Origin: an uncultured virus (IMG/VR IMGVR_UViG_3300020048_000016)
Lineage: Duplodnaviria > Heunggongvirae > Uroviricota > Caudoviricetes
IMG/VR virus record: IMGVR_UViG_3300020048_000016
Length of the DNA: 64,000 bases
Reading direction: 5' to 3' (one strand)
Under the pieces are notes generated by a model, which saw nothing but the letters and a program-made list of their open reading frames with translations, made no database searches and was not told the origin of the DNA. Positions 9,618-49,033 of this stretch are shown piece by piece (position 1 is the first letter of the stretch; each line of letters starts with the position of its first letter). A program made the position numbers and the translations under genes.

Positions 9618-9857
9618 TTATCTATTTGGAAACCAATATTCCTTTTTAAATTCCATTGGGTCTATTTCAATATTATATATTTTTCTTATAGAACTCAACC
9701 TATCAAATTGTTTCCAATTTATTTCACCTTTATAGTATGAAATCATATCAGCAATAATTTCTTCAGCAGAATCTCCTTTTTTTCTCCAAATCTGCCACCA
9801 CTTTTTCCTATGAGGTTTTCTATCACCTACTGGTATTTTATAAGTTATACTTTTCAT
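9618..9857 (-). CDS. small protein resembling a portal (gp20) fragment
   Basis: YKIPVG...AEEIIADMISYYK...MEFKKEYWFPNR; internal tag-like RLSSIRKIY. Confidence 0.5.
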   Translation of the reverse strand: MKSITYKIPVGDRKPHRKKWWQIWRKKGDSAEEIIADMISYYKGEINWKQFDRLSSIRKIYNIEIDPMEFKKEYWFPNR

Positions 9858-10144
9858 CTTTTAACTCTTAATTTTTCATAAGCAATCGGATCAACAACTA
9901 TATTATTATATGTACCCGGTTCTCTTTCATCATCAAGATATTCGTGCGCTAGTTGATTAACTGCTATATTATCAGTATCTATGTCAGAGTAGTGAATGTG
10001 TTCAAATGCTTCCATAAGTTCGTTACGATCTTCCTCAGTAGGTACTACGATAACATACTTGGTCCATTTTACTTGGCTCATTTCTTCTTTCGTAAGATAA
10101 AGAGCATCTTTATCTTTTTTGAAATCGTCATATTTCTTCATCAT
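9854..10144 (-). CDS. hypothetical protein
   Basis: 96 aa ORF in the grpE-dnaJ operon. Confidence 0.55.
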   Translation of the reverse strand: MMKKYDDFKKDKDALYLTKEEMSQVKWTKYVIVVPTEEDRNELMEAFEHIHYSDIDTDNIAVNQLAHEYLDDEREPGTYNNIVVDPIAYEKLRVKR

Positions 10145-10469
10145 CTTTAAATAAATTATTTAGTATTATTTCTCTTCTTATGCAATTAGCACTATCATCA
10201 AAATATATATCAGTATATTTATTATACTGAATAAAGAAATCAGGACCTTCATAGTGCTGGTTATAATCTCTTCTTCTTCTAAAGTTCATAATTGGTAATT
10301 CATCAAATATCTCTTTGAATAAATCTTCTGTGCTTTCAAAATTAGATAAATCATTTTCATTTAATCTTTTACATAAATAGTCCATAGCAGGTGCCACATG
10401 TGATTCAACTGTCTTTCTGTATTTATCAGTATTGTATAAATCTGCTACTTCTAATCTCCAACTAATCAT
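10128..10469 (-). CDS. hypothetical protein with C-terminal tag
   Basis: Ends RREIILNNLFKDDEEI. Confidence 0.6.
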   Translation of the reverse strand: MISWRLEVADLYNTDKYRKTVESHVAPAMDYLCKRLNENDLSNFESTEDLFKEIFDELPIMNFRRRRDYNQHYEGPDFFIQYNKYTDIYFDDSANCIRREIILNNLFKDDEEI

Positions 10470-10969
10470 TTTAATGTTTTTTTAATTTTCAAATCTCTTA
10501 TATCTGCTACTATATCTTCTCTACCTCTTGTTCTTTCAACTAAATGAGCAACATAGTTATCTACTATTAACTCAAGTGTTTTACTTGTTCTATCTAAACT
10601 TTCTAAAAGTTCTAATGATTTTTTCATCTTAGGAACTATTACAAGGAAATAATCCACAAATTCATCTATATCAAATAATAATTGAAAGTATTCTAATCTT
10701 TTTTCTTTGAAAAGTGTTGGTGGGTTAAAAAAAACCTCAGCAAAAATTCTTCTAACACAAGGAAGTATTAAATCGACCATTTGATCTTCTTCTTCATACA
10801 TAGTTCCTTCAAAATCTTTATTTTCAAATAAATGCAACTTTTGATCGACAACATATTCTAGTATGTCAACCAAAAGTTGCTTTTTATCTCCGAGACCATT
10901 TGACAAAGCATCAATCATTAATTTTCTAAACGCTTCATCAGTTCTCATATCTAATACAGATTTAGACAT
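10466..10969 (-). CDS. hypothetical protein with C-terminal tag (possible MCP N-terminal-like segment)
   Basis: LILPCVRRIFAEV; ends IRDLKIKKTLK. Confidence 0.6.
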   Translation of the reverse strand: MSKSVLDMRTDEAFRKLMIDALSNGLGDKKQLLVDILEYVVDQKLHLFENKDFEGTMYEEEDQMVDLILPCVRRIFAEVFFNPPTLFKEKRLEYFQLLFDIDEFVDYFLVIVPKMKKSLELLESLDRTSKTLELIVDNYVAHLVERTRGREDIVADIRDLKIKKTLK

Positions 10970-11424
10970 TATTTTCCAAGTATAATTTTTGGGTATCTAA
11001 ATGGCTTATCATTCAGTGTATAACCTTTACTCACAACATCAATTATTTTACTTTCACCTATTTCCATAATAGAAATAACTTCGTGTAAATCTTCATCGTA
11101 AGTTTCAGTTTGAATTGGTTCAATTCCTTGTGTTTTTAAGAAAGTAGTTACTTTATTAGAAATAAGTTCAACACCTTCTCTAGCAGAATCATCTTTGATG
11201 TTTTTAAGAGCCAGTGTGATATCATTATCCATATCTAAGATAGAAGTGATCATGGAAACCTTTGTGTTGTTTCTTAATTCTTCTTTTTCTTTTATTAATC
11301 TCTTTTTGTAATTCTCAAAGTCAGCATATAATAACATATACTTATTTTCCGCTTCTTTTAACTTTGTTTCTAAATCAATTTCGTTGTTGTTAACTTCTTC
11401 AACTTCGTTCTCTTTATTTTCCAT
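10969..11424 (-). CDS. grpE: nucleotide exchange factor GrpE
   Basis: ADFENYKKR, DEDLHEVI, KGYTLNDK..RYPKI motifs. Confidence 0.93.
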   Translation of the reverse strand: MENKENEVEEVNNNEIDLETKLKEAENKYMLLYADFENYKKRLIKEKEELRNNTKVSMITSILDMDNDITLALKNIKDDSAREGVELISNKVTTFLKTQGIEPIQTETYDEDLHEVISIMEIGESKIIDVVSKGYTLNDKPFRYPKIILGK

Positions 11425-11425
11425 A

Positions 11426-11947
11426 TTAATAATTAAATTTTAAAAGTTTTCTTATGTTATTTGATCCATAAAATTCGTAAGTAACATTTTTATCTACGAT
11501 CTTATGAACTTCTAGTTTTTCAACATCTTTTTTAATTCCATCTATGTAATCAACTAACTCAGATAATGCTATACCATAAGATGATGTTGGTTCCCAATAG
11601 TCAGGAAATTTATCTAAAAATTTATCAATTGCTAAATCAAATGCTTTTTTTCTAGCAAGAAGTGAATCTTGATGTTTCATTGATTTGTTTGTTAAAAATT
11701 CAACAACATAGTTGTTAAACTTGTGGATAAGATTATCAGTCTCAATTACTTTAAGTAAACCAATAACCAAAGCATCCTTCTCAGTCATCTCCATCTCTGC
11801 ATTTTCTTTTAGTATTTTCTCTGCTTCTTTATCAGAACCACCTAGTATGTAATAAACATAATTGTCCCATAAACATCTTCTAACAATGTCCTCTGCGTAT
11901 ATTTTAATATTCATATATAAAATCTCTTTTTTCTTTATTATAGACAA
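11426..11947 (-). CDS. hypothetical protein
   Basis: ORF leading the grpE-dnaJ operon. Confidence 0.6.
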   Translation of the reverse strand: MSIIKKKEILYMNIKIYAEDIVRRCLWDNYVYYILGGSDKEAEKILKENAEMEMTEKDALVIGLLKVIETDNLIHKFNNYVVEFLTNKSMKHQDSLLARKKAFDLAIDKFLDKFPDYWEPTSSYGIALSELVDYIDGIKKDVEKLEVHKIVDKNVTYEFYGSNNIRKLLKFNY

Positions 11948-12041
11948 ACAATAAAATAAAGTTTAATATATAAAAATCAAAAAATTTCTTTATATTTGTA
12001 AAAAATATTATTATGAGTAAGGTAGAACCAGGAAATTTCTA

Positions 12042-12206
12042 ATGACACACAGAACTAAATTAAAGATAATACTCAATCCAATTCTTAGAAAGTTTGGGTG
12101 GTCAATAGTAAGTGTAATGAAAAATGACATTTTTATTAGATATGAATTAAGAAGATATCCAGAAAATTGTCCAGTAATAAAAAAAGAAGATGAAAGTAGT
12201 TTGTAA
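12042..12206 (+). CDS. small hypothetical protein (54 aa, not in the ORF track)
   Basis: MTHRTKLKIILNPILRKFGWSIVSV...; preceded by a 9-codon ORF MSKVEPGNF (12013-12042) with TAATG coupling. Confidence 0.5.
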   Translation: MTHRTKLKIILNPILRKFGWSIVSVMKNDIFIRYELRRYPENCPVIKKEDESSL

Positions 12207-12477
12207 AAATAATCATAAGAATGCAATAGATGATGAAGATGATTATGAATTATCTGTTCATAAAAATATTATAGAACAATATAAAGGAGGTGGTGATCAT
12301 TTAATCTTAGGTAAGGTCTATGAAGTTAACGGTGTAGATGTTTCCGATTTTGAAAAAGCCAGTGAATGTTATTATTCAATTGTGAATGAATCTGGTCAAC
12401 AATTTTGGTATTCTAGTAACCGATTTAAGAGCATATCTGATAATAGAGATGATAAATTAAAAGAATTAGGAATATAG
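12190..12477 (+). CDS. small beta-rich protein with C-terminal tag
   Basis: Ends NRDDKLKELGI. Confidence 0.65.
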   Translation: MKVVCKNNHKNAIDDEDDYELSVHKNIIEQYKGGGDHLILGKVYEVNGVDVSDFEKASECYYSIVNESGQQFWYSSNRFKSISDNRDDKLKELGI

Positions 12478-12706: not shown

Positions 12707-12946
12707 ATGAACGAAAGGATTACAAATACAAGTCTTTATAAACAAAAAGAAGAATTAGGTATTGAATATGCTTGGAATACCGAGCAATATGCAGCATTCA
12801 CTAAATGTGAAACCGATGATTTAATAGAAGACTATATAATTTATGAATATTTCGGCACAGGTGAGATACGAATAATGGATTCTGAAAATAAAGAAGAAGT
12901 TCTAGTAACTCAGAGAGTATTAAATTTAATGAGATTAGGTATATGA
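12707..12946 (+). CDS. hypothetical protein with C-terminal tag variant
   Basis: Ends QRVLNLMRLGI. Confidence 0.6.
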   Translation: MNERITNTSLYKQKEELGIEYAWNTEQYAAFTKCETDDLIEDYIIYEYFGTGEIRIMDSENKEEVLVTQRVLNLMRLGI

Positions 12947-13340: not shown

Positions 13341-13763
13341 ATGAAAAAAATAGGATTCACTTGTTCATGTTTTGATCTGTTTCATGCAGGTCATATTATG
13401 ATGTTAAAAGAAGCAAAATCAAATTGCGATTATCTTATCGTTGGACTACAAACTGATCCAACTATAGATAGACCAGAAAAGAATAAACCAATACAAAGTG
13501 TTGTTGAAAGATTTATTCAATTAGAATCGTGTAAATATGTTGATGAAGTTGTTGTTTATGCAACAGAGAAAGATTTACTTGATATTCTTTATTCTTATCC
13601 AATTAATGTTAGAATTGTTGGTGAGGAATACCGAGATAAAGATTTTACAGGTAAAGATTTAGAACATATCGAAATGTATTATAATCAAAGAAAACATTCA
13701 TTCTCTACTACTGAATTAAGAGGTAGAGTTATTGATAGATATTTAAAAGAGAAAAAGAGTTAG
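13341..13763 (+). CDS. cytidylyltransferase (TagD/glycerol-3-phosphate CTase-like)
   Basis: FDLFHAGH (HxGH), YVDEVV, FSTTELR. Confidence 0.9.
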   Translation: MKKIGFTCSCFDLFHAGHIMMLKEAKSNCDYLIVGLQTDPTIDRPEKNKPIQSVVERFIQLESCKYVDEVVVYATEKDLLDILYSYPINVRIVGEEYRDKDFTGKDLEHIEMYYNQRKHSFSTTELRGRVIDRYLKEKKS

Positions 13764-14296
13764 ATATTATATTCCAATATTATCTCTCTCAACTTATCAC
13801 CTTTTTCTTTGAATAATGTTTCCATCTCAGATGATATTTTATAACCATCATCATTTCTTTTATATGCTCTATAAAATACTTCCATAAAACCAGGTCCAAT
13901 ACCTTTTGGGCCTATCCAATCACCTACATTTTTATATTTTACCTCTGCTCTATAAAAACTCATGATCTCCGCAAGTCTTTTAACTGCAGTTACTATTTCC
14001 ATACCTACGTCTTCGCTATTTAAACTAGGTATATACTCCATTATTCCGTGTCTAGTTTCTACTTCTTTACTTTCTTTTGAAATACCTAACTTTATAACTA
14101 TTCTACACATTCTCATTCTATTTTGATCTTCATATCCAAAAGAAACCAAAACCCCAGAATTAGGACTATACTCTCCCATTTTACCTAGTGCATCATTTAT
14201 ATAAACTAAAATATCATCAATCTCATCAACTAGATTTTGATCAGTTACAAAATTCTTATCTCTTTTAAAAGATTCGAATGTTTTAATTAATTTCAT
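13760..14296 (-). CDS. putative internal head protein (capsid-targeting-like leader)
   Basis: Starts MKLIKTFESF; TAATATATA at 14301-14309. Confidence 0.55.
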   Translation of the reverse strand: MKLIKTFESFKRDKNFVTDQNLVDEIDDILVYINDALGKMGEYSPNSGVLVSFGYEDQNRMRMCRIVIKLGISKESKEVETRHGIMEYIPSLNSEDVGMEIVTAVKRLAEIMSFYRAEVKYKNVGDWIGPKGIGPGFMEVFYRAYKRNDDGYKISSEMETLFKEKGDKLREIILEYNI

Positions 14297-24056: not shown

Positions 24057-24980
24057 ATGAATAGAATCGGATATTGTTGTATAGCCATCGGATGTAATGA
24101 TGGTAAGAAAAAGAAAGATTATATCACTGTTAATCGTGGTATGGTTAAAAAAACATTTTTAGCAAAAGGTATTCCTTATGTTTCGGAACTCGTTATAGAG
24201 AACCTTAAAGATACTCTAGAAGTATTGAAATATAATCTATCTAAAAAAATCTATGTATATAGAATGTCTAGTGATTCATTTCCCTGGATGTCCGAGTATG
24301 AGTTTGCGGATCTACCAAACTTTAACTATATACAAAGTCTTTTAATCAAAATAGGAAACTTTGTAAAAGAAAATGATCTTAGAGTATCATATCATCCAGG
24401 TCCTTTCAATGTTTTAGCAAGTGAAAATCAATCTGTAGTTGAAAAAACAATTTATGAATTGAATAAACACGCAGAACTTATGGATCTTATGGGTTTAGAT
24501 AAATCACACTACTATCCGATAAATATTCACATCAATACTACAAAACCAACCAGAGAAGAAGCAGCGCAGAGATTTGTTGATAACTTTGCATTATTAACTG
24601 ACTCTTGTAAGAGTAGATTAACATTAGAGAATGATGATAGTCCAAATCAATACTCAGTTAAAATATTACACGACTTAGTTTATACTAAAGTCGGTATTCC
24701 AATTGTATTTGATCAACATCACTTCAACTATGGTCCACAAGATCAAAGTATGGAAGAAGCACTTAGATTAGCACATTCAACTTGGAATGTAAAACCTATG
24801 ACACATATTAGTTCACCTAAAATATTAGAAGATGCTACTGGAAGAGCAACCGCACATGCAGATTACATTTATGAAGAAATTGAAACTTTTGGCCTTGAAT
24901 TTGATACAGAAATTGAAGCGAAGGCTAAAGACCTTGCCGTCATTAAGTATAGAAGTCAATTCCAATTACTCAAAGGCTAG
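24057..24980 (+). CDS. uvsE: UV damage endonuclease UvsE/UVDE
   Basis: RIGYCC, YRMSSD.FPW, HPGPFNVLAS, LENDD, VFDQHH, HADYI, EAKAKD. Confidence 0.93.
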   Translation: MNRIGYCCIAIGCNDGKKKKDYITVNRGMVKKTFLAKGIPYVSELVIENLKDTLEVLKYNLSKKIYVYRMSSDSFPWMSEYEFADLPNFNYIQSLLIKIGNFVKENDLRVSYHPGPFNVLASENQSVVEKTIYELNKHAELMDLMGLDKSHYYPINIHINTTKPTREEAAQRFVDNFALLTDSCKSRLTLENDDSPNQYSVKILHDLVYTKVGIPIVFDQHHFNYGPQDQSMEEALRLAHSTWNVKPMTHISSPKILEDATGRATAHADYIYEEIETFGLEFDTEIEAKAKDLAVIKYRSQFQLLKG

Positions 24981-25245
24981 GTTTAAAGTAGGTGATGAAG
25001 TTTTGATTACATCTCGTAAGAATCTAGTACAAGGTGGTTCTATAGAAGGTGTTGTTTTAGAAGTAGTTCTTGTAGGTAAACTAAGAGGTGATAGTATAGA
25101 CGAATGGCTTTATCAAGTTCAATATAATCCGGTTGAAGGTAGAAGTATAGGAAAGCACAAACACATTAATTATTTTAATGAAAGTGAATTAGATTTTACA
25201 CTACAAAGAAAGAGAGAAGATAAATTAAAAGAATTAGGTATATGA
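24934..25245 (+). CDS. small SH3/KOW-like protein with C-terminal tag (start uncertain)
   Basis: RFKVGDEV...; ends KREDKLKELGI. Confidence 0.55.
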   Translation: MPSLSIEVNSNYSKARFKVGDEVLITSRKNLVQGGSIEGVVLEVVLVGKLRGDSIDEWLYQVQYNPVEGRSIGKHKHINYFNESELDFTLQRKREDKLKELGI

Positions 25246-25661
25246 AAGAACAATTAAACGAAATAGTAGAAACGCTAATATCAGCAACTAAAAATGGAAG
25301 TATTTCTTGGAATGAGAAAGAGCCAAATTCAAAGACCAGAGGATATAAAAGAAGAATGGTCGCAAATGGTTCGGACAATTCTTCTTTTGAAATTAACATA
25401 GAATATACACTTACTGATGATAAATGGCGATTAGAAGAAAATAGTATGTGGGTTGTAAATCCCATTCTACCTGATGGTAGACATATGATTTCTACATACG
25501 CTAATAAAAATATTACTATTCTAAGAGATTTGATAATCAAAGAGTTCTGTAAAGATCTAAACCCAAGTATAAAGGTAGTAGAAGATATTCTAACCGATAT
25601 TTGTAAAAATATTTCAATATCTACACTAAGAGATAATAAACTAAAAGATCTTGGTATATAA
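25242..25661 (+). CDS. hypothetical protein with C-terminal tag
   Basis: Ends LRDNKLKDLGI. Confidence 0.65.
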   Translation: MKEQLNEIVETLISATKNGSISWNEKEPNSKTRGYKRRMVANGSDNSSFEINIEYTLTDDKWRLEENSMWVVNPILPDGRHMISTYANKNITILRDLIIKEFCKDLNPSIKVVEDILTDICKNISISTLRDNKLKDLGI

Positions 25662-26059
25662 TGAATTATAGAGAGATAATAGATGAGATAAAAGATATCA
25701 CAAAAAATCTCACCATAATTGAGGGCATTGTTGATATACACCATTCACACTCATTTCACGAAATAAATTATTATGAAATAAAAAACGCTTCTAATTCTTT
25801 CTGGACAATTTTAGGAAACGCTAATGAAGATGAAATAAAAGAATGTTTAGAAGATTATCCATTTGATGAAAATAATGTTCAAGACGAAGGCGAATATCAC
25901 TTTAACGCAGTTTTAAAATATGATGGTAGTGAACCTGATCATTATGGTTATTGGTATATAGATTATATTGAAATGACTTTTCAACAAACTTTTATAGAAA
26001 GAGAAAGAGAAGAAAAACTATTTAGATTATTAGATGATGATCCGGATATTTTTTCATAA
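25661..26059 (+). CDS. hypothetical protein with C-terminal tag
   Basis: Ends EREEKLFRLLDDDPDIFS. Confidence 0.6.
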   Translation: MNYREIIDEIKDITKNLTIIEGIVDIHHSHSFHEINYYEIKNASNSFWTILGNANEDEIKECLEDYPFDENNVQDEGEYHFNAVLKYDGSEPDHYGYWYIDYIEMTFQQTFIEREREEKLFRLLDDDPDIFS

Positions 26060-30626: not shown

Positions 30627-30723
30627 ATATACTATTTATTTTAAGTTTTCTTATAAGGTTTTTTGGCAATGGTTCAAGATTCATATTATATCTACCCATC
30701 ATCAAATCAAGCATTCTTCCCAT
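30604..30723 (-). CDS. 39-aa micro-protein that is mostly the C-terminal tag (not in the ORF track)
   Basis: MGRMLDLMMGRYIMNLEPLPKNLIRKLKINSIYAEARKI*. Confidence 0.45.
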   Translation of the reverse strand: MGRMLDLMMGRYNMNLEPLPKNLIRKLKINSIYAEARKI

Positions 30724-31966: not shown

Positions 31967-32144
31967 AAATTTTATTTATTTTTTCTTTTCTTATTTTTTC
32001 TTTATTGAAACCAAGCAAATCAGCAATCCAATCTCTATTAAAATATGGTTTTCCGGAATCATCAGATACACTACTTAAATCATTGAATATATTTATTCTT
32101 TTCATTAATAAATCTGTTTTAGATTTCTCATCATTCAATTCCAT
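31956..32144 (-). CDS. small protein resembling a portal C-terminal segment, plus tag
   Basis: DLLMKRINIF...KPYFNRDWIADLLG; ends IRKEKINKIYEQ. Confidence 0.5.
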   Translation of the reverse strand: MELNDEKSKTDLLMKRINIFNDLSSVSDDSGKPYFNRDWIADLLGFNKEKIRKEKINKIYEQ

Positions 32145-32313
32145 ATACTCTATATATTTTTTTCATACGACGGTAATTTTTCTCCTGAAAGATTTCCGAT
32201 AATGCCTGACTTACTTGTTGAGAGGTTATGATATAGTTTGCAGCACCACTACTACTCATTTTATTGATGTAATTAGAAGACTGCAATACTTTATCATATA
32301 AACTCTGTGTCAT
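32131..32313 (-). CDS. small protein resembling a major capsid protein segment, plus tag
   Basis: LYDKVLQSSNYINKMSSSGAANYIITSQQVSQAL; ends RRMKKIYRVYGIE. Confidence 0.55.
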   Translation of the reverse strand: MTQSLYDKVLQSSNYINKMSSSGAANYIITSQQVSQALSEIFQEKNYRRMKKIYRVYGIE

Positions 32314-32884: not shown

Positions 32885-33295
32885 TTAATTTCCTTTTTCT
32901 AACTTCTTAAAGTAAGCAAGTTCCTCTTTTATAAAATCTGGAAACTTTCTAATTAAATAGTCTAGATCGAATTGATCAACTCTTAATCCTTTTAAAAGAA
33001 GTTTATAATCTTTCTCTGGTAATTCTTTTTCCTGCTTAGGTGTTTTAGACCAGAAGTTACTTGGATATGGTTGAGTTTTCATAAAATGAAACCATAAATC
33101 CATTGCCAACACTTTATCTATATTTTTTAGATTCAAAAGTTGAGCTTTTTCAGGATATAATTTGGAGAAATAGCGATTATAAATAAAAAAGAATTCACTT
33201 TTTACCTCATCGCTAATTTTATCTCCATTATTATTATATATCCAATCTTTTTTAAACTTGAACATCGCATTTGCGACATCTGTTATTCCTGCCAT
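32885..33295 (-). CDS. possible clamp-loader small subunit (T4 gp62-like)
   Basis: FIYNRYFS...AQLLN...WFHFM...FWSK pattern loosely resembles gp62; size fits. Confidence 0.35.
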   Translation of the reverse strand: MAGITDVANAMFKFKKDWIYNNNGDKISDEVKSEFFFIYNRYFSKLYPEKAQLLNLKNIDKVLAMDLWFHFMKTQPYPSNFWSKTPKQEKELPEKDYKLLLKGLRVDQFDLDYLIRKFPDFIKEELAYFKKLEKGN

Positions 33296-33702
33296 TATTT
33301 TAGTAAGTTATTAAGTAAATATTCTCTCATCCAAACTTTATCAACAAGTGATAAAAATTCTATTTCAAACAATTTTAGTAATTCCTCATCAGAAAGTTTA
33401 TATTCAAACACAGTATCTATTGGAACATAATCACCATTAACAAGTTTATACTCAAAAATACCAGTTGAATAATTGTAAAATTTACCAACAACCTCAATTC
33501 TTTCCCAATCAAGCAATTTTTCTTTTATCTCGACAAATTTCTTTGGTAACTCACCATCTTTGCAATCAGAAGAGAACCACTCTGAATAATAGCAAATTAT
33601 TCTTATAAGAACCGGGTTTTTAATATCTCTAAATATACCCTCAACTATAGATCTCCACTTCTTTTCGTAATTTTGAAGTTGAGTGTTATCTAATATTCTC
33701 AT
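33295..33702 (-). CDS. hypothetical protein with C-terminal tag
   Basis: EKKWRSIVE near the N-terminus; ends MREYLLNNLLK. Confidence 0.6.
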   Translation of the reverse strand: MRILDNTQLQNYEKKWRSIVEGIFRDIKNPVLIRIICYYSEWFSSDCKDGELPKKFVEIKEKLLDWERIEVVGKFYNYSTGIFEYKLVNGDYVPIDTVFEYKLSDEELLKLFEIEFLSLVDKVWMREYLLNNLLK

Positions 33703-34657
33703 AACCAAATTCCATTTTATCAATAATTTCATCCGGTAAATTATGAAGTCTTAAATCAATAAGTTTGAAATTACCTTTAATATTCTCAACAATATCTTCA
33801 ATCTTAGATTTACTTAATTTCTTTTTCTCACAAATTAAATCAGCGATATTTTCAAGTAAATCTGGATCAGATAAGTTTATTTCACCAAACTCAGTAATAT
33901 AGTTATCATAAATACCCTTAGCACCCTTAGCACCAATACCTCTTGTTTTACCGTTTTTCGTTACATTCCAAACAGAAGAGATGTTGTCACTTTGATCACC
34001 TGATATAATCTTAATGATTAATGATTCGACAGGATCTATCTCATTCAACTCATATTTAGTAATGAAACGATTCATAAGTTCAATAAATTCACTATTATCA
34101 TTCAATGCGAAAATATCATCATTTGGCAACTTCGATACTTTGTTTAAGAAGATCTGGTAGTTTTTAGGTAAGAATAGTTTCTCTTTATTAAACATCTCAT
34201 TACTCATAATGTTGATGTATAAAGGCTCTAAACTATAACTAACTATTTGTTTGATGTCGTAGTCATTCGAAACGATTATAGTTGATCTGTTATTCTCATT
34301 CGCTCTTGTTACCAAGAATGAAATCCAATCATCACCTTCTACGTGTGGTGCTTCTAAAATTTTACAACCGACAACAGATTCTTTGAATTCACCATAAGCA
34401 GTGTAGACAAAATTCCAATCTATGTCTGAGTCTTTTTTACGAGTGGCTTTATAATCACTCGTTAGTTGTTTTCTCCAAGATTTTTCTTTGGAGTCTGATA
34501 CAAGATAGATATTCGCGAACGGATACCATTTTCTGTAATTGTTAATTGTATTCTCAAGTGACTTGTGTAACGCACCAAAAAGAAGATTGTTCTTGTGAAG
34601 TGTGAATACTAGTTTACTTAAAATATAATTTCCGTCGATTATGAGGTCAAGAACCAT
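33686..34657 (-). CDS. 5'-3' exonuclease / RNase H (T4 rnh, FEN family)
   Basis: IIDGNY, SWRK...YKATRK, EGDD, SNDYD, GDQSDNI. Confidence 0.9.
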   Translation of the reverse strand: MVLDLIIDGNYILSKLVFTLHKNNLLFGALHKSLENTINNYRKWYPFANIYLVSDSKEKSWRKQLTSDYKATRKKDSDIDWNFVYTAYGEFKESVVGCKILEAPHVEGDDWISFLVTRANENNRSTIIVSNDYDIKQIVSYSLEPLYINIMSNEMFNKEKLFLPKNYQIFLNKVSKLPNDDIFALNDNSEFIELMNRFITKYELNEIDPVESLIIKIISGDQSDNISSVWNVTKNGKTRGIGAKGAKGIYDNYITEFGEINLSDPDLLENIADLICEKKKLSKSKIEDIVENIKGNFKLIDLRLHNLPDEIIDKMEFGYENIR

Positions 34658-35609: not shown

Positions 35610-36149
35610 TTATTTCATAATCAGATTTATTTGAATTTCTCGCCAGAGAGCATTATAATCCTCTCTGATATCTCTATCATATTGATAGATATCTTGTCCT
35701 TTACTATGATACCAATCCCTCCAATGATTATTTGCTTTCTCTTTAACCTCTTCGTATAATTCTTTCATAAGGTCAAAACAGTCTTCTTTTTCAACCCATT
35801 CACATAAATTTTGAATAAGATCAAATTGAATCTTTTCAAATTCTGTTTTGAAGTTTCTTGTTATATAAGTTAAGAAGTAATGATAGATGATCTTATCTTT
35901 ATAATCATCAACACCTTTTGGATTCATTAAATCGGGATAACACATATAGAACTCAATATCTAAAGACATCAAGTGTTTTATTAATTTAGAAATTCCTTTA
36001 TGTATTCTGTGATCCAAACTAACAAATACGACATCCGTATCTGCGTCAATATAGCAGATAGGTATCTTTAAATACTTCTTAAAAAATAATGTGTTCTTAT
36101 CTACGATCCAATTAGAACTATTATCTGGTATTAAATCATTTAAGTCCAT
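35610..36149 (-). CDS. hypothetical protein with C-terminal tag
   Basis: Ends WREIQINLIMK. Confidence 0.6.
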   Translation of the reverse strand: MDLNDLIPDNSSNWIVDKNTLFFKKYLKIPICYIDADTDVVFVSLDHRIHKGISKLIKHLMSLDIEFYMCYPDLMNPKGVDDYKDKIIYHYFLTYITRNFKTEFEKIQFDLIQNLCEWVEKEDCFDLMKELYEEVKEKANNHWRDWYHSKGQDIYQYDRDIREDYNALWREIQINLIMK

Positions 36150-36495: not shown

Positions 36496-36894
36496 TTAAT
36501 TTAGAATATCACCTATTTTTAAATCTCTTCTCAATGAATTTAAATATGAAGTTGAATCATAAAAATCAACATCAATATAGAAATCCTTAAATGTTTTTAT
36601 TTTATATGTGAATTTAAAAAATTTATCTATACTACCAAAATCAACATCTCCTAGTTCAAAAATACATGTTTTTATTATATCACCTTTCCTATTATACTGT
36701 TTAAGTACCGCGATTTTAATATCTCTCGAATCATTAAATGTAAATTCATTTCTATTAATATCAAGCATAATTGAAAAATTATTACCCAATACATTTGTGT
36801 TATCAGGTGTAAATGAAATTTCTTTTAAATCTTTGTTAATAAATAAAACATCAACTACTGTTGTATCATTTTTATTATAATTAAATCCAATCAT
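36496..36894 (-). CDS. protein with a tail-tube-like segment and C-terminal tag
   Basis: AVLKQYNRKGDIIKT; ends RRDLKIGDILN. Confidence 0.55.
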   Translation of the reverse strand: MIGFNYNKNDTTVVDVLFINKDLKEISFTPDNTNVLGNNFSIMLDINRNEFTFNDSRDIKIAVLKQYNRKGDIIKTCIFELGDVDFGSIDKFFKFTYKIKTFKDFYIDVDFYDSTSYLNSLRRDLKIGDILN

Positions 36895-38836: not shown

Positions 38837-40241
38837 ATGAATCAAAAAAGTATAACCAATTTTTTATCAAATGAATATAAGGGTTTTGCTTTCTATGTTA
38901 TAGAAAATAGAGCTATACCAAATGTTATTGATTTTTACACATGGGAGAAATTAACTACTGGAGCANNNNNNNNNNGCTCTTCCATCTGTAATTGATGGGT
39001 TTAAACCGACACAACGTAAAATAATACACGTTTGTAGTCAGATATGGAAGACAGGTGCTGAGAAACCTCTTAAAGTCTTCCAATTAGGTGGTAAAGTAGC
39101 AAGTGATGCTTTTTATCATCACGGTAATATGTCACTTGAAAATGCTATTGTAACAATGGCTCAGAAGTTTAAAAACAACGCTGCTTTATTAGAAGAAGTT
39201 GGACAATACGGATCTTTAAGATCACCACAAGCAGGTGCACCTAGATATATCGGAACTAAACTAAATAACAATTTTAAACTAATTTATAAAGATTCTGACT
39301 TATTAGAATTTAAAGAAGAAGAAGGTGAATCAATTGAACCACATTATTTTCTTCCTATCATACCAATGGTTTTAATAAATGGATCTTCTGGTATCGCGGT
39401 TGGTTTCGCGATGAACATTCTAAATAGAGATATCAAAAGTGTTACAGAAGCTTGTATAAATACACTTAAAGGTAAAGGTATAACTGAGATTAAACCATCT
39501 ATAAACGAATTCAGTGGTGAATTCATACAAGATATAGAAAACAATAAAAGATGGATAATAAGAGGTAAATTTCAACGAGTTAATACATCAACAGTTAGAA
39601 TTACTGAGTTACCACCATCAATGACCTATGAGAAGTATGAAGCAATCTTAGATAAATTGTGCGACGATAAAGTTATTGTTTCATATGATAACAATTGTAA
39701 AGATAATATCGATTATGTTATAAAATTCACACGTGCTGAGTTGGAGAAAATAACAGATGAGAAATTAATTAAAATATTTAAACTAGAGGAATACTCAACT
39801 GAGATATTCTCTACGCTAGATGAGTTTGGTAAATTAAAAATATTCGAAAACACATCTGACATAATCAGATATTTTGTTAATTTCAGACTTGAATACTATC
39901 ACAAGAGAAAAGAGTTTATGTTGAACAAGATGAGACATGATCTTAAAGTTCTTTCTAATAGAGGTAGATTTATCAAAGCAATCTTAGATGAGAAATTAAA
40001 AGTTAATAATGTTTCTAAACCAGATATTATAAAAGGTATCGAAGAAATGAATCTAGAACAAATAGATGGTAACTATGACTACTTATTGAGAATGCCGATC
40101 TACTCTTTAACAAAAGAATTATTCGAAAAGTTAAAAGCAGATTTTACCGCAAAGAAAGAAGAAATTAAAGTATTAGAAGAAACAGATCCAAAAGATATGT
40201 ACCTTCTAGATTTAGATGAACTTAAAAAGAAATTTAAATAA
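38837..40241 (+). CDS. type IIA topoisomerase cleavage subunit (T4 gp52-like), interrupted by an assembly gap
   Basis: 5' part MNQK...IENRAIPNVID; after the gap ALPSVIDGFKPTQRK, YHHG, GAPRYI (catalytic Tyr), GIAVGF. Confidence 0.92.
38966..38975. other. scaffold gap (10 N)
   Basis: N-run. Confidence 1.
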
Positions 40242-40576
40242 TGGTAGACGTAATTTCTATTATAGAAGATTTTAAAAATTACACATTTGATAGAAAATAT
40301 GATATGATATTCTCTATGGATGATGAATACTACGAAATTATTGAGATTAGAGATAAAATACAAGATGTAAATAAAATGCCAGATTATATTAAGAATGATT
40401 GGTATAAGTATAATAGTATTCCTCTAACCGAAAAAACATTAGATAAACATTTAGCAGATGCTGAAGAAAACATAAAAAGACCTCGTTCAGTAAGAAACGA
40501 TGTAGATCCAGAAATGGATAAATTAAAAGAACTTAGAGCACTCAAAAGAAATTTTAAAATAGATAGTATATTATAA
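40241..40576 (+). CDS. hypothetical protein with C-terminal tag
   Basis: Ends KRNFKIDSIL. Confidence 0.6.
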   Translation: MVDVISIIEDFKNYTFDRKYDMIFSMDDEYYEIIEIRDKIQDVNKMPDYIKNDWYKYNSIPLTEKTLDKHLADAEENIKRPRSVRNDVDPEMDKLKELRALKRNFKIDSIL

Positions 40577-41416: not shown

Positions 41417-42044
41417 AAGTTATCTTAGAGATATAAAACTATCATCTATATTCTCAGAAGAGAATGTAACAATCGTAAATGATCATGCTTGTTTCAAACC
41501 TAGATTATTCTATAAAAATAGAAAAAAATTTATTACTCAATTAAAAGGATTAGATGGTATTTTAGTTGGATCAGCAGCATTATCTATGTATAGAGTTAAT
41601 GGAGTAGATGTATTCACTAGAACTTATTCAGACTTAGACTTTGTTGTTAGTAGAGACAATTTTATTAAGTTTTGTGGTATGAATAACTTCAAAAATGTTA
41701 AATATACCAATACGGTTGTTTCATTAAACTTTCACACTGGTAAAGATTTAGGAACTGATAGTTATGGACATCACAGAGGACATATGTTTCATACAGACTT
41801 TGATGTAATTGGTTGTGATGATCCTATCTCATATAATGTTGTTGGTGATCTAAAGGTTGAAAGTTTTTTATCAATCATAAATAATAAACTTAAACTTGCA
41901 GAAGATTATCTATATAAATATGATAATTCACCAAGTTTAGGTTGGAACGAAAAAGATAATTATAAATCACAAGCTAGAAAGCATATAGATGATTTATTTG
42001 AAGTAATAACAAAAATAGCAGCAAATGAAGGTATTAAGGCTTAG
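41391..42044 (+). CDS. nucleotidyltransferase-fold (Pol beta-like) protein with the tag near the N-terminus
   Basis: LVGSAAL...R.YSDLDFVV; LRDIKLSSIF near the N-terminus. Confidence 0.65.
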   Translation: MQQKLNDVKSYLRDIKLSSIFSEENVTIVNDHACFKPRLFYKNRKKFITQLKGLDGILVGSAALSMYRVNGVDVFTRTYSDLDFVVSRDNFIKFCGMNNFKNVKYTNTVVSLNFHTGKDLGTDSYGHHRGHMFHTDFDVIGCDDPISYNVVGDLKVESFLSIINNKLKLAEDYLYKYDNSPSLGWNEKDNYKSQARKHIDDLFEVITKIAANEGIKA

Positions 42045-42417
42045 TGAAAAAAAAATACACATTAAGTGTAATATGAAAATACTTATAACACACGATAAAA
42101 ATGAGTGTATAGTTATAGATGATATCGATACCAGGTTTGTATATAGAAAAGGACCTTACTATGATTTTAATTTAAAACAACCAGGTATCTGTTATTCTAT
42201 AATTATAAAGGATGGATTTCTATCAAGTTTGTGTAACAAATATCAAATTAAGAAAAAATTTGTAAGTTTTATGCAAACAGATACGAGCAATAAAATGAGT
42301 ATAAATATATCAGAGGAAGATCATGTATTAGTAGAAACATATTCAATTTTATTTTCAGATAAAGACTGGTATGTTAGGTGGAATAGAGAGCAGCAATTAA
42401 AAAAATTATTAGAATAA
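42025..42417 (+). CDS. hypothetical protein with C-terminal tag
   Basis: Ends NREQQLKKLLE. Confidence 0.6.
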   Translation: MKVLRLSEKKIHIKCNMKILITHDKNECIVIDDIDTRFVYRKGPYYDFNLKQPGICYSIIIKDGFLSSLCNKYQIKKKFVSFMQTDTSNKMSINISEEDHVLVETYSILFSDKDWYVRWNREQQLKKLLE

Positions 42418-45488: not shown

Positions 45489-45746
45489 TTGAAATTTTTA
45501 TGTATCAGAAACTATTTTGAGGATTCGTCAAGCAGGGCGAGATGGACAAAAGGAAAATACTACGAAGGACGAATGGCGAACGGATTCGACAAAGAAAATG
45601 GCATAACTTGCTATGTAGTATCCAATAACTATGGAATAAACGACGATATAGAATACTTCGTTAAGACTAAAGAATATAACAACTATTTCAAATCAATAGA
45701 AGATGTTCGAGATGAAAAATTAGAGGAACTATTAAATAATAAATAA
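45489..45746 (+). CDS. small protein with C-terminal tag
   Basis: Ends VRDEKLEELLNNK. Confidence 0.6.
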   Translation: MKFLCIRNYFEDSSSRARWTKGKYYEGRMANGFDKENGITCYVVSNNYGINDDIEYFVKTKEYNNYFKSIEDVRDEKLEELLNNK

Positions 45747-45957
45747 AAGTAAATGAATGCTAAAATTATATTATCACATTATCCATATTATCTGACTCCT
45801 GATAAATTCTACCAAATAGAACAAAGTCAAATAGAAGAAAACATTTATTTTATAACAACTGATGTAGGATCTACCACTTCGGTTGATATATCTCAACTCA
45901 GATTTTTAGATGAAATTAGAAGTGAAAAATTAGAGGAACTATTAAATAATAAATAAA
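45713..45957 (+). repeat. 35-bp exact direct repeat encoding the tag ends of two adjacent genes
   Basis: tgaaaaattagaggaactattaaataataaataaa at 45713 and 45923 (210 bp apart). Confidence 0.9.
45753..45956 (+). CDS. small protein with C-terminal tag
   Basis: Ends IRSEKLEELLNNK. Confidence 0.6.
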   Translation: MNAKIILSHYPYYLTPDKFYQIEQSQIEENIYFITTDVGSTTSVDISQLRFLDEIRSEKLEELLNNK

Positions 45958-45977: not shown

Positions 45978-46664
45978 ATGATAAATTAGATTACAACACC
46001 GAAAATCGATTGGAGAACTAAAAAAGTTTCTGATCATGATCTAGCAGTTAAACTATTTAACGCTACAATTGAATTATACAACTTCATCCACAAAAATAGC
46101 GACAAGATCGCATTCGCAGACATTAAATATCAGAAGACAGAAGGAACTGGTGAGTGGAGATTATCAAAATGGATAAAACCTATCTATGATATACAAGAAG
46201 TATCCACCCATTATACATCAGGCAGATTTGATATCAAACTAAATAATGCCGAATATTCTCGAATATCTTTAAAAACAAAAGAATATATTGCTTGTAATAG
46301 AGCTTATACTAGTCATTTAACCTTTACTAGTGATATCATAATAGAATGTAGTCCATACCATTATGGTGATAGAAGTATTTATGCTATGATAGACAACATA
46401 AGAATATTTATCAAAAGAATACCTAAGAAATCAAGAAATAAAATTGTTAAAATGCTTTATTGGTTCGAATGTACACCAATTGAAGAAAGAGGGTTTGTCG
46501 AATATGCTGCTCTTTTTAAAAGGATGAGAACTTACTTTGATATGGAGATATTAGAAAAATGGGTTAGTGGTAAAAACAAATTAAAATTTGATAAAATAGT
46601 AGAAACTTATGATCAAGTTGAAACTAGAAATAGAAAGTTAAACAAATTATTAAGACGAAAATGA
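45978..46664 (+). CDS. 228-codon ORF with a single in-frame TAG at codon 4 (amber read-through candidate or pseudogene); C-terminal tag
   Basis: ATG ATA AAT TAG ATT ACA..., then open in frame into the track ORF 46386-46664; ends TRNRKLNKLLRRK. Confidence 0.6.
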
Positions 46665-47416
46665 AAAATACTTATTTAAGTGATAGTGATATAATGGGTT
46701 GGAATGATAGAATTCCAAAACGAAGACCTTATTCAATTATAGCTAGATATTCATCTCAGAATACACAACCGACTATTGTATTTATCAATAATAATAATAA
46801 CAATAGTATTTATACAGGTAGTTCATTTGATACTTCTGGTGATGCCAATGAACCAAAAGAGAAATTCAAATTTGTTTTCTCTATTTCTTCAAATAGAAAA
46901 GATGAGTTCTGGGACATATTCTCAAAACTAAAAAAGAAAGGATTTATAAACTATGTAAAGAAAGGAAATGGTTCTCATAAAACATTAGACTATACTGATA
47001 AAATTATTGAATCAAAGTCCGAAATGGAACATAATGTTCTTAATAAAGAATACACTAGATATGAATTCTTATACGATGGATTGTTATCAGAGATAATGGC
47101 TCATGTTTCTTTATTAGAACAAAGTATTGAATTTTTCTCAGAAATATGGGGCTATGATGAAGATGGTAAAGAGTATAACTTAATTAAGTTTCCTATTGGT
47201 AGTATTGCATCACCATTTGATGATAAATCAAAAGATCTAGTTATTTTAGATTATGACTATGAGAAAAATGGTAAAGATTATCATATAAAATATATTGTGA
47301 GTGAGATGATGCATGATCCAAAATCTCTTATAATTAAATATGGTGATGTGATTACTATGACTGAGAGTTTAATTACATTCAGCAGAAATGGTAGAATAGA
47401 TGATTTATTAAATTAA
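46661..47416 (+). CDS. hypothetical protein with C-terminal tag
   Basis: Ends SRNGRIDDLLN. Confidence 0.65.
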   Translation: MKNTYLSDSDIMGWNDRIPKRRPYSIIARYSSQNTQPTIVFINNNNNNSIYTGSSFDTSGDANEPKEKFKFVFSISSNRKDEFWDIFSKLKKKGFINYVKKGNGSHKTLDYTDKIIESKSEMEHNVLNKEYTRYEFLYDGLLSEIMAHVSLLEQSIEFFSEIWGYDEDGKEYNLIKFPIGSIASPFDDKSKDLVILDYDYEKNGKDYHIKYIVSEMMHDPKSLIIKYGDVITMTESLITFSRNGRIDDLLN

Positions 47417-47533: not shown

Positions 47534-47540
47534 TATTTAA

Positions 47541-47620
47541 GCGGGTAGAGCATAATGCAACGTGGAAGTTGCACCACCCTCTAAAAGTGATAGCATCGGG
47601 TTCAAATCCTGCTACCCGCA
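47541..47620 (+). tRNA. atypical tRNA with CUA (amber suppressor) anticodon
   Basis: GCGGGTAG/CTACCCGC acceptor; TGCAAC/GTTGCA D-like stem; loop CT-CTA-AA (47579-47585) on a 3-bp CAC/GTG stem; GGTTCAAATCC T-loop; no encoded CCA. Confidence 0.6.
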
Positions 47621-47633
47621 CTAATAAATTTTT

Positions 47634-47783
47634 ATGATCACTTTTATACAAATTATTTCATTATTGCTATTAGTATCAATACTATTAATTAAAAAGACTA
47701 GTTACCAGGAATATGGTGTTGCCGGTATTCTTTTAGGATTAACAGCGATTTTAATATTTATGTTATACTTATTATTCAGATGA
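47634..47783 (+). CDS. small two-TM membrane protein (not in the ORF track)
   Basis: MITFIQIISLLLLVSILLIKK...GVAGILLGLTAILIFMLYLLFR*. Confidence 0.55.
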   Translation: MITFIQIISLLLLVSILLIKKTSYQEYGVAGILLGLTAILIFMLYLLFR

Positions 47784-48232
47784 AAAAGATAGATCCTAGA
47801 AAATTAAATTCTTTTTGTAGAGATGAAAGAGATTTTTTATATTGGGCTCACGAACAATATATAAGAAGTTTTCGTAGCAATGAAAGATTTAAAGAACAAA
47901 TTAACACTATTTTAGATATAATAAAAATAAAATATAATATGGGAGCAAGTGGACCTTGGAACGGACAATCAAAAGCCGAGTACCAAAAAAATTACAAACG
48001 TGTATCTGATATTGTTTCTAAATCAGATGGAGACGAAGACAAACAAATTAAGTTAGCAAAAATACAAACTGCTAAGATTACTGATGAGTGGAAAGCACTA
48101 AATAGGGCGATGTGTGCAAAAGAAATGGGTCACGAAAATATTTATGAAGTTTTCTTCCAGAGAGCTTATGAGTTAGGATCAGTTTCTAAACAAGACTACA
48201 GAGAATATAAACTTGAAAAATTGGGAATATGA
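47780..48232 (+). CDS. hypothetical protein with C-terminal tag (possibly a fusion of two ORFs; second ATG at 47939)
   Basis: Internal RFKEQINTIL; ends YREYKLEKLGI. Confidence 0.6.
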   Translation: MKKIDPRKLNSFCRDERDFLYWAHEQYIRSFRSNERFKEQINTILDIIKIKYNMGASGPWNGQSKAEYQKNYKRVSDIVSKSDGDEDKQIKLAKIQTAKITDEWKALNRAMCAKEMGHENIYEVFFQRAYELGSVSKQDYREYKLEKLGI

Positions 48233-48354
48233 AAGAAAAAATAACTAACACAACCATACTACAGGTTGCACTTATTTCTGGGATAGTAATATTAGCATCT
48301 ATGGGTCTTGAAGGATGGGGATGGCTCGTATTTGCATTGCTTCTAACTTTATGA
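48229..48354 (+). CDS. small membrane protein (41 aa, not in the ORF track)
   Basis: MKEKITNTTILQVALISGIVILASMGLEGWGWLVFALLLTL*; ATGA-coupled at both ends. Confidence 0.55.
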   Translation: MKEKITNTTILQVALISGIVILASMGLEGWGWLVFALLLTL

Positions 48355-48635
48355 ATGGAATAATCAAAACAAAGATGCTTTGTAAATCTACAATGAAGGA
48401 AGGTTCAAGGTATAATATAAGAGTAACGGTTGAAGTATTCACAGAAGGTAAAGAATATAATGTTGAGTTTAAACCTTTTAGAAAAGGATCATCTGGTTTT
48501 TCAGAGTATCAATATTATTGGGCGACCGGTGAAGATGGTGAAAAAAGAGAAATTCCACCATCACACTTTAATATAATTTTTTGTAATAAAGCAGAGAAAA
48601 GAAATAAACTAATAGAGGAAATATTAAAAAAGTAA
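48351..48635 (+). CDS. small protein with C-terminal tag
   Basis: FTEGKEYNV; ends KRNKLIEEILKK. Confidence 0.6.
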   Translation: MNGIIKTKMLCKSTMKEGSRYNIRVTVEVFTEGKEYNVEFKPFRKGSSGFSEYQYYWATGEDGEKREIPPSHFNIIFCNKAEKRNKLIEEILKK

Positions 48636-48646
48636 ATATAAATAGT

Positions 48647-49033
48647 ATGAGTGAAGAAGTAAAAAATGTAACAGTGTCAGATCTTTTCGTTAAGATTTAT
48701 GAAAATTTTAACGTAGTTGATCAGATTGAGAATATGAATAATCTTTCTGAAGAAGAATTATATCTATTGCTCGTTTATGTATTAGACAGACATAGTGATG
48801 ACGATCCTGTAGTTGTTCACAACCTACAACCATTCAAAGAAAAAGTTATGGAGATCTATGAGCTACAAGACGATAAAGAAACAACTAATCCGGTCTTGTT
48901 AGTATTGGTTGAAGAAACAGGTGACAAATATATTGAAACTGACTATGTAGTAAATAGACTAGGTGATAAACTTAAAGACCCGTTAACAAAAGAAGAAGTT
49001 CGTGAAGCAAAAATCGATATTATCGGTGAGTAA
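48647..49033 (+). CDS. hypothetical protein with C-terminal tag
   Basis: Ends VREAKIDIIGE. Confidence 0.6.
   Translation: MSEEVKNVTVSDLFVKIYENFNVVDQIENMNNLSEEELYLLLVYVLDRHSDDDPVVVHNLQPFKEKVMEIYELQDDKETTNPVLLVLVEETGDKYIETDYVVNRLGDKLKDPLTKEEVREAKIDIIGE

Follow-up and report, generated by a model that had tools for sequence, protein, structure and literature searches.

A helical C-terminal tag on many small, unrelated proteins of huge Bacteroidota phages: a candidate signal read in trans

Introduction

Why should many small phage proteins that have little else in common end in the same short peptide? This question is raised by a 64,000-nucleotide stretch of DNA from an uncultured virus (IMG/VR record IMGVR_UViG_3300020048_000016; hereafter the window), for which a preliminary description had listed 25 C-termini built on one arginine-led peptide, the tag. 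Our analysis of the window and its relatives indicates that the tag is most probably a common handle read by one trans-acting factor. About 165 unrelated bodies have an invariant arginine whose spacing to the chain end is fixed, the peptide comes in lineage-specific dialects, and a sister lineage bears a different label; together these facts argue for a signal read in trans. In the largest known phages, small orphan genes of unknown role make up one sixth to one fifth of the total, and a shared, lineage-specific end-label would group them into one functional class with a single experimental handle.

The window has a G+C content of 29%, and about 108 genes were called across it. Their products include DnaK, DnaJ, GrpE, RNA ligase, NUDIX, PARG, a split topoisomerase II, NusG, dCMP deaminase, a rhomboid and a MoxR-like ATPase. 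In the DnaK region, DNA identity to the 'uncultured phage' records LR745206 (634 kb) and LR756502 (642 kb) was 72-74%. Al-Shayeb et al. 2020 assign their largest genomes, of 634-735 kb, to the Mahaphage clade, with Bacteroidetes as the predicted hosts. We compared the window with the whole relatives LR745206, LR756501 (735 kb) and LR756504 and with the IMG/VR contigs G002 (385 kb) and G004 (344 kb); LR745206, LR756504, G002 and G004 are the four tag-bearing genomes that were analysed in full.

The tag is enriched at the C-termini of window proteins

All 25 C-terminal strings of the preliminary description were found in the sequence, 22 of them at the positions given. The other three lie on open reading frames (ORFs) with other starts: REDKLKELGI ends the ORF 24832/24934-25245, RNRKLNKLL (followed by RRK) ends 46386-46664 and not an ORF starting at 45978, and RNKLIEEIL (followed by KK) ends 48315/48321-48635. 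The tag was then expressed as the pattern R...[LI]..[LI][LIVFMGY], starting within the last 16 amino acids. This pattern fitted 22 of the 25 strings, and three were looser variants (RDLKIKKTL at 10466, KSKKIDQLF at 27805 and RMKKIYRVY at 32131). With our own gene calls (108 genes), on which the window counts rest, 21 of the 108 genes, about one in five, carried the tag, compared with a mean of 0.91 (maximum 5) over 500 shuffles of the last 16 residues and 0.3 after whole-protein shuffling. No match was found in the N-terminal 16 residues of the 108 genes, and the reversed C-termini gave one. The stricter pattern R..K[LI]..[LI][LG], the form first described, was found at the C-termini of 9 of 106 genes and only once among 17,937 interior positions.

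Internal or N-terminal copies had also been reported at 9618, 19973 and 41391. These strings exist, but interior matches in the window numbered 8 against 6.4 expected, so these copies are at chance level. The reported absence of the tag from core enzymes and from proteins with an MKYLK leader was borne out: no tagged window protein reached a Pfam cut-off, and the strict tag occurred in 0/13 MK.[IL]K.F proteins, one of which (13760-14296) ends in a variant with lysine in place of the arginine.

The constraint acts on a peptide at the end of a predicted helix

A profile of 291 tags revealed lysine four positions before the arginine (R-4) in 34%, isoleucine or leucine at R-1 and then the arginine itself (R1). 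Position 2 was D, K, E or N; position 4 was lysine in 57%, arginine in 10% and isoleucine in 16%; position 5 was [IL], positions 6 and 7 were polar, position 8 was [LI] and position 9 was L, I or G. The register of the tag was sharp. Among 2,951 proteins from five tag-bearing sets, 81, 190, 78, 32, 21, 15, 17 and 12 matches were followed by 0 to 7 residues after position 9, respectively, over a background beyond offset 7 of about 1.3 per offset. AlphaFold2 models built from family alignments placed the tag within the terminal helix 94-111 of the protein encoded at 10131-10469 (mean predicted local distance difference test score, pLDDT, 80) and within helix 161-177 of that encoded at 35613-36149 (mean pLDDT 82), where the helix is preceded by a linker with pLDDT below 50. 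Prediction for these two proteins agrees with the helical nature first proposed for the tag.

Codons at R1, K4, I/L5, L/I8 and position 9 tracked genomic usage, with all synonymous codons present; the constraint therefore acts on the peptide and not on the DNA. Tag arginines used AGA in 73% (75% genome-wide) and AGG in 15% (11% genome-wide), and every leucine and isoleucine codon was used, with a mild shift toward A-ending codons (ATA, CTA; also GGA). For 55 pairs of homologues drawn from 15 families, identity was 56% in the tag compared with 38% in the bodies, and R was conserved in 98% and position 5 in 82% of the pairs. The motif persisted at 36.6% G+C (G004, 102/508) and at 46.6% G+C (locus L114, 5/23). 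Equally AT-rich controls were negative (Lak-A2 0/82, Staphylococcus phage 0/53), and in the AT-rich relative LR756501 3/1010 genes matched, which is the level expected by chance (3.2). This part of the first description, a constant, portable element on unrelated bodies, is supported, with selection acting at the peptide level.

The last 14 residues of the carriers had a median net charge of 0 to +1. A membrane-anchor role was considered and rejected on this low charge and on the frequency of transmembrane-like segments, which occurred in 4% of tagged and 9% of untagged LR745206 proteins. A search of PDB sequences with the tag profile gave a best E-value of 0.39, which is meaningless.

Carrier proteins are small and mutually unrelated

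Carriers in LR745206 were small (median 105 aa vs 161 aa) and had few recognizable domains, with 3 of 150 tagged proteins matching any Pfam family (E 1e-4); a PHROGs search with 25 carriers gave three weak matches and no function. No body relatedness was detected under E 0.01 in any of 210 pairs of window carriers, and the 167 tagged LR745206 bodies fell into 165 BLAST clusters. The two AlphaFold2 carrier models had different architectures; Foldseek returned no match under E 0.3 for either body, and the ESM Atlas, queried with one carrier, returned solely an unnamed viral cluster at 0.76.

Tagged LR745206 proteins had BLAST matches in 4/167 cases in LR756501 and 10/167 in LR756504, compared with 212/787 untagged proteins in each of these genomes. 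Between the window and LR745206, median identity was 38% for tagged proteins vs 56%, and 9 of the 10 LR745206 partners of tagged window proteins fitted the tag pattern, the tenth being a variant. Judged by these sequence identities, the carriers evolve fast and nevertheless retain the tag. Carriers were also clustered, with 52 adjacent pairs compared with 29 expected (maximum 43 over 500), and the dnaJ-grpE operon of the window contains tagged genes, as does the neighbourhood of DnaK.

The tag occurs in lineage dialects and is replaced by another label in a sister lineage

Genome-wide, the tag was found on 167/954 genes of LR745206, 103/923 of LR756504, 52/458 of G002 and 102/508 of G004, against shuffle expectations of 1.5-7. 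An 18-column hidden Markov model (HMM) built from the window tags was run over all six frames, so that its results are independent of gene calls; it gave 46 matches in LR745206 and 10 in LR756504, and none in LR756501 or Lak-A2 (541 kb). At least one match at E 0.05 was present in 24 of the 27 DnaK-bearing IMG/VR records searched. In a DnaK tree (quick mode, midpoint root), tag-rich loci fell mostly in one large clade and tag-free loci in another; the branches of LR756504 and LR756501 were long and are unreliable. The tag is kept across a clade of huge Bacteroidota phages.

The tag differed in form between lineages: R-D-x-K-[IL]-x-K-[IL]-L in LR745206 and G002, R-E-x-[KR]-L-x-E-L-G-I in G004 and R-K-x-[KIR]-I-x-x-L-[LI]-stop in LR756504. 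These dialects argue for a co-evolving reader. Unbiased motif discovery in the tag-less LR756501 revealed a different element, DP[YFW]GEE.W, which ends 41 of its 1010 proteins and has 62 more, interior copies (loci L042-L078, e.g. record positions 11314, 44452 and 130076). The bodies that carry it were almost all singleton BLAST clusters. No copy of DP[YFW]GEE.W was found in the window, LR745206, LR756504, G002 or G004; with the arginine tag at chance level in LR756501, the two labels are mutually exclusive between lineages.

Tagged genes of LR745206 are enriched behind one of two upstream motifs

Two classes of upstream motif, TAnnTTTG and (T)TAATATATA, were recognized in the intergenic regions of the window (for example 23980-24060, 27764-27804 and 59473-59508) and genome-wide in LR745206, often back to back in divergent regions. 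We take TAnnTTTG to be the -7 promoter element of Bacteroidota, and the (T)TAATATATA motif is presumably a phage-specific promoter. In LR745206, 60/174 genes in units headed by TAnnTTTG were tagged, compared with 23/368 in units headed by the TAATATATA-type motif (odds ratio 7.9, P = 2e-16). ATATATA was present in 179/364 upstream regions, a 12-fold enrichment.

A second shared motif was seen at N-termini. Thirteen window proteins begin MK.[IL][KIMV].[FY] (MKYLKRFNES and alike), among them those at 13760-14296, 22489-24019, 26387-27763, 51344-54726 and 58135-59472. These proteins are larger and without Pfam families, and their genes mostly have TAATATATA a few bases upstream of the ATG.

Search for a reader encoded by the phages

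Phyletic profiling was used to look for a phage-encoded reader. Seventy LR745206 proteins had matches in each of the genomes LR756504, G002 and G004; for 56 of them LR756501 gave a match as well. A set of 75 proteins was matched in LR756504 and unmatched in LR756501, and 14 of these remained once G002 and G004 were required. The 14 include GrpE, dCMP deaminase, the rhomboid, 2H and HAD RNA-repair domains, a coiled-coil protein (window 44330-45184), a 129-aa UVR-motif protein, and a 55-mer (RHH-like) and a CYTH-like protein, both labelled by eye from their sequences. No obvious reader was found among these candidates. The coiled-coil and UVR-motif proteins were considered and set aside, as they are merely present in the tag-bearing records and absent from three tag-less ones.

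Clp components were the strongest candidates at first sight. ClpP matches numbered 2 in LR745206, 3 in LR756504, 2 in G004, 2 in G011, none in LR756501 and 2 in Lak-A2, and ClpS was present in LR745206, LR756504, G002, G011, G012 and G013. Neither was retained as reader, ClpS being missing from G004 and ClpP being present in the tag-less Lak-A2. An AAA_2 ClpC-like unfoldase in LR745206, LR756504, G002 and G004 has a VGF loop, which we take to be the ClpP-docking loop of ClpC, and lacks the Clp N-domain; its LR756501 orthologue is ClpB-like, with the N-domain and without the VGF loop. The unfoldase lies at 423224-425329 in LR745206 and its orthologue at 352511-354745 in LR756501; its N-terminus is acidic and of low complexity except in LR756504. 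A further candidate that had seemed promising, the three-gene cluster PrkA - YeaH (DUF444) - SpoVR at LR745206 480112-484920, showed 49-65% identity to LR756504 and had no BLAST match in LR756501.

The window also encodes a MoxR-like ATPase (62241-63392), recognized by an AAA_5 match below the cut-off (E 5.6e-4, 20.4 bits vs 22), and a von Willebrand factor A (vWA)-metallopeptidase (DUF2201; 49557-51125) whose homologues carry PF13203 and PF09967. Both have homologues in LR756501 at 37-42% identity; conserved in tagged and tag-less genomes alike, the pair is not specifically linked to the tag. A predicted complex of the vWA-metallopeptidase (515 aa) with the 10131-10469 protein scored 0.00 (mark 0.32, without controls), which speaks neither for nor against binding.

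The idea of a phage tmRNA whose tag resembles the motif was rejected: ARAGORN detected no tmRNA in the five genomes or the window, and an Rfam scan of 140 kb around smpB (LR745206 280-420 kb) found only tRNAs and no tmRNA. SmpB itself is encoded at LR745206 332952-333386. The scanned region has 54 tRNA-type Rfam matches, and LR745206 encodes several aminoacyl-tRNA synthetases.

Comparison with known systems

We found no description of such a tag in the literature searched, which covered full-text searches and passages of huge-phage papers, supplements excluded; this agrees with the first impression that no system of this kind had been described. New here are the whole-genome censuses, the sharp terminal register, the lineage dialects, the tag-less sister lineage with DPYGEExW, a MoxR/vWA pair that does not track the tag, and the ClpC-like/ClpP contrast.

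The capsid targeting sequence (CTS) of phage T4 is an N-terminal leader of about 10 residues that is cleaved in the prohead, on a handful of packaged proteins made late. Like the CTS on IPI-III and Alt, the tag is a short constant peptide on diverse, fast-evolving proteins of one lineage, those of T4 being anti-host proteins, and the 165 clusters formed by 167 bodies fit this likeness. PMC3012670 describes the T4 internal proteins as diverse bodies with 'only a conserved CTS'. The tag differs in being C-terminal, with matches that peak 0-2 residues from the end and 0/108 N-termini bearing the motif, and in sitting on 17-20% of genes, which are early-looking by promoter motifs only.

The ssrA and ClpX C-motif degrons end in ...LAA-COOH or RRKKAI-COOH and are unstructured. 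The tag shares with AAA+ C-terminal degrons (ssrA, and the MuA-type C-motif 2 of ClpX) a short signal that occupies the very C-terminus and is compatible with any body, and tag-bearing phages encode Clp components, which is co-occurrence only. Five classes of ClpX degron, unstructured and N- or C-terminal, are known according to PMC12723719. In contrast to LAA or RRKKAI, the tag is a predicted helix with invariant Arg/Lys, and it is encoded in the gene, whereas ssrA is added by tmRNA.

Type IV effectors (Dot/Icm, VirB/D4) number hundreds of unrelated proteins, several percent or more of a proteome, served by one machine. They resemble the carriers in having a loosely conserved C-terminal signal on unrelated proteins; the phage tag is more sharply defined, helical and without an E-block, and no secretion machinery was found among the Pfam-scanned proteins (104 from the window, 67 + 51 from LR745206). 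Sliding-clamp motifs read Q-x-x-[LIM]-x-x-[FY]-[FY] (PIP box) or Q-L-[SD]-L-F, whereas the tag has an invariant R four positions before the first hydrophobic residue, K at -1 and mostly L or G at the hydrophobic position 9 (Φ9). Lacking defining features of the T4 CTS and of the known AAA+ degrons, the tag is not a member of either class, and it is probably not a type IV signal. The MoxR/vWA pair of group 2.2 jumbo phages (PMC7824862) is the same gene pair as in the window and all relatives and could conceivably read and process a terminal motif; it occurs also in the tag-less LR756501 and so is not confined to genomes with the tag.

What the tag may do

Our first-ranked reading, offered tentatively and more likely wrong than right, is that the tag is a built-in C-terminal degron. 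The portable signal forms the final turns, two to three in number, of a predicted amphipathic helix at the chain end, with the form [IL]-R-[DEN/K]-x-K-[IL]-polar-polar-[LI]-[LIG] and usually 0-2 residues before the stop, and selection keeps it on about 100-170 small, fast-evolving, otherwise unrelated proteins per genome. A phage ClpC-like unfoldase (without N-domain, with VGF loop) acting with ClpP, or a host AAA+ protease, would engage the exposed chain end, and an early effector set would be cleared by that protease as infection proceeds. Of these steps, we infer early timing, recognition in trans and proteolysis. A degron ranks first because only a mechanism acting at the chain end explains why interior copies are not enriched, because the carriers look early, and because a ClpP-competent unfoldase and ClpP occur in tag-bearing genomes and not in the tag-less relative. 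The preliminary description had favoured an adaptor role and named a degron as an alternative; since the motif is strictly C-terminal, its carriers look early and Clp components co-occur with it, the alternative fits the data at least as well.

Several observations weigh against degradation. With Arg and Lys invariant, a specific groove is indicated and not a pore, and known bacterial C-terminal degrons are unstructured and nonpolar or basic. For the tag a helix is predicted, with pLDDT 72-88 and so similar to the body, and it may therefore be packed and not free. The carriers are probably immediate-early proteins, judging by upstream sequence, but the promoter classes are motif-based guesses, and the window itself showed no promoter contrast (tagged genes: 4/33 in the H-class, 6/45 in the P-class and 11/30 unclassified). 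ClpS is absent from LR756501, from Lak-A2 and also from the tag-rich G004. In Lak-A2, two ClpP matches pass the cut-off and an AAA_2 protein is present although the tag is absent, and Clp is therefore insufficient. No ClpP was found in G002, an absence that is uninformative because this contig corresponds to no more than about 130-520 kb on the LR745206 map.

Docking to a hub comes close to a degron in likelihood, although it too is improbable taken singly. Here the helix would be the plug by which varied small effector heads attach to one hub of phage or host origin (for example a chaperone, RNA polymerase, the replisome, a scaffold or a compartment), and they would be concentrated or positioned there without proteolysis. 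The conserved basic-plus-hydrophobic face (K-4, R1, K4, [IL]5, [LI]8, Φ9) and the lineage dialects are typical of helix-in-groove motifs, and the predicted helicity of the tag would suit them. Tagged genes within the dnaJ-grpE operon and next to DnaK, and the 14 genes common to the four tag-bearing genomes and unmatched in LR756501 (GrpE and the coiled-coil, UVR-motif and rhomboid proteins among them), point the same way. However, profiling of the phage genes gave no partner, DnaK and DnaJ are found also in the tag-less LR756501 and Lak-A2, and one hub would have to accept 100-170 different clients. A pure docking helix, moreover, need not be chain-terminal, yet interior copies are at chance.

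Clearly less probable is a structural element acting in cis with no reader, that is, a C-terminal capping, packing or oligomerization helix that was inherited or converged on. The predicted pLDDT of the tag (72-88) is near that of the bodies and its hydrophobic face may pack on them, and the ...L-G-I ending, read from the sequence, suits a helix C-cap. Packing alone hardly explains why about 165 unrelated bodies have an invariant Arg in fixed register with the chain end. Lineage-wide dialect shifts (D/E to K at position 2, L to G at position 9) and the chemically opposite DPYGEExW of the sister lineage likewise speak against a cis role, and like-charged faces speak against pairing between tags.

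We give marginally less credence to the tag as a substrate mark for the MoxR AAA+ / vWA-metallopeptidase (DUF2201) pair, the vWA domain binding the tagged end and the peptidase processing the protein. Both genes lie within the window (at the positions given above), and the gene for the peptidase immediately follows the densest tagged cluster (45264-49033). In LR745206 both have TAnnTTTG-type motifs upstream, as do tagged genes, and the peptidase is highly conserved, at 70-96% identity among the best 120 of 1,886 matches. Against this, LR756501 has homologues of both without the arginine tag, although its different C-terminal motif would allow for a specificity that co-evolved. A role of the pair in virion assembly, with processing of structural proteins, is proposed by Iyer et al. 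2021 (PMC7824862).

Capsid targeting and ejection is very unlikely. Tagged proteins would be packed in the huge head, which has the room, and injected like the T4 internal proteins, following the same logic of diverse anti-host bodies with one constant targeting sequence (PMC3012670); but the tag is C-terminal and no cleaved N-terminal leader, host-type promoter motifs precede its carriers more often than expected while the TAATATATA class is depleted of them, and 100-170 cargoes per genome would be unprecedented. Finally, a signal at the nucleotide level, serving the next gene as ribosome site, promoter, terminator or recombination site, can be dismissed almost with certainty, as can a mere effect of AT-rich composition: a slight excess of A-ending codons (ATA, CTA, GGA) and several tags that overlap the next start codon would suit this reading, yet all synonymous codons stand near their genomic frequency, I/L interchange needs first-base changes, tags end operons as well, composition-matched shuffles gave 0.3-7 against 21-167 observed, and the tag is kept in the higher-GC sequences (36.6% and 46.6%) and absent from AT-rich Lak-A2, LR756501 and the Staphylococcus phage.

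Beyond the choice among these readings, huge Bacteroidota phages may run a proteome-wide, lineage-specific C-terminal code through which dedicated, co-evolving phage machines route or retire early orphan effectors, with the 100-170 effectors of one lineage bearing the arginine helix and the set of its sister lineage DPYGEExW. We hold this joint proposal to be conceivable, though on balance doubtful. A degron or sorting signal, if true, would show by what means the large early-effector arsenal of huge phages is timed or positioned and would provide a portable tag for use in Bacteroidota; an addressing code, if true, would be a viral protein-sorting or turnover system without a described counterpart. 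The label also gives a simple means of flagging, by sequence, candidate early effectors in phage genomes from metagenomes.

Tagged reading frames of the window

On the minus strand, the first tagged ORF (10128..10469, 113 aa) ends ...REIILNNLF followed by KDDEEI, and its tag region is kept in 15 distinct homologues. The adjoining 10466..10969 (167 aa) ends in the loose variant ...RDLKIKKTLK, with T at position 8, and falls outside the strict pattern. At 13760..14296, an ORF of 178 aa outside the earlier list combines an MKLIKTF N-terminus with the K-for-R variant KGDKLREII followed by LEYNI. Further minus-strand ORFs are 29962..30216 (82-84 aa, RNYIIDEIVDK), the mini-ORF 30604..30723 (36-39 aa, RKLKINSIY followed by AEARKI), 30707..30886 (55-59 aa, RKISIICIF followed by DGKNA), 31956..32144 (62 aa, RKEKINKIYEQ) and 32131..32313 (60 aa), the last a loose variant ending RMKKIYRVYGIE, with V at position 8. 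Also on this strand are 33295..33732 (135-145 aa, REYLLNNLLK), 35610..36149 (179 aa, REIQINLIMK), whose tag is present in 7/7 homologues, and 36496..36894 (132 aa, RDLKIGDILN).

On the plus strand, 12190..12477 (95 aa) ends RDDKLKELGI and 12707..12946 (79 aa) ends RVLNLMRLGI, homologues of the latter ending in R[IML][LI]NL..L.[IV]. Three consecutive ORFs follow: 24934..25245, open from 24832 and of uncertain start, ends REDKLKELGI; 25242..25661 (139 aa) ends RDNKLKDLGI; and 25661..26059 (132 aa) fits the pattern with REEKLFRLL and then an 8-residue tail. The ORF 27805..28008 (67 aa) has the K-for-R variant KSKKIDQLFGK, while 40241..40576 (111 aa) ends RNFKIDSIL and 42025..42417 (114-130 aa) ends REQQLKKLLE.

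Tagged ORFs of the densest cluster, also on the plus strand, are 45489..45746 (57-85 aa, ending RDEKLEELLNNK), 45753..45956 (67 aa, RSEKLEELLNNK), 46386..46664 (92 aa, RNRKLNKLLRRK; first placed at 45978), 46661..47416 (251 aa, RNGRIDDLLN), 47780..48232 (150 aa, REYKLEKLGI), 48315..48635 (94-106 aa, RNKLIEEILKK; first placed at 48351) and 48647..49033 (128 aa, REAKIDIIGE). A lone tRNA (47541-47620, plus strand, Rfam 36 bits) lies amid this cluster.

Other features of the window

Two short runs of N are present at 38965-38975 and 51107-51117. The second cuts the ORF of the vWA-metallopeptidase, and a peptide at 51146-51235 duplicates the residues that precede the run, which suggests an assembly gap or masked stretch. 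The regions 14353-20000 and 54747-59967 hold an RNA repair / ADP-ribose toolkit with a T4-type RNA ligase, NUDIX, microbial PARG, CCA/polyA polymerase, and 2H and HAD 'Swiss army knife' domains. At 3704-8287 the window encodes a 1527-aa protein with five DUF285 repeats and Laminin_G_3, Lcl_C and PKD domains, which is likely a surface adhesin or fibre.

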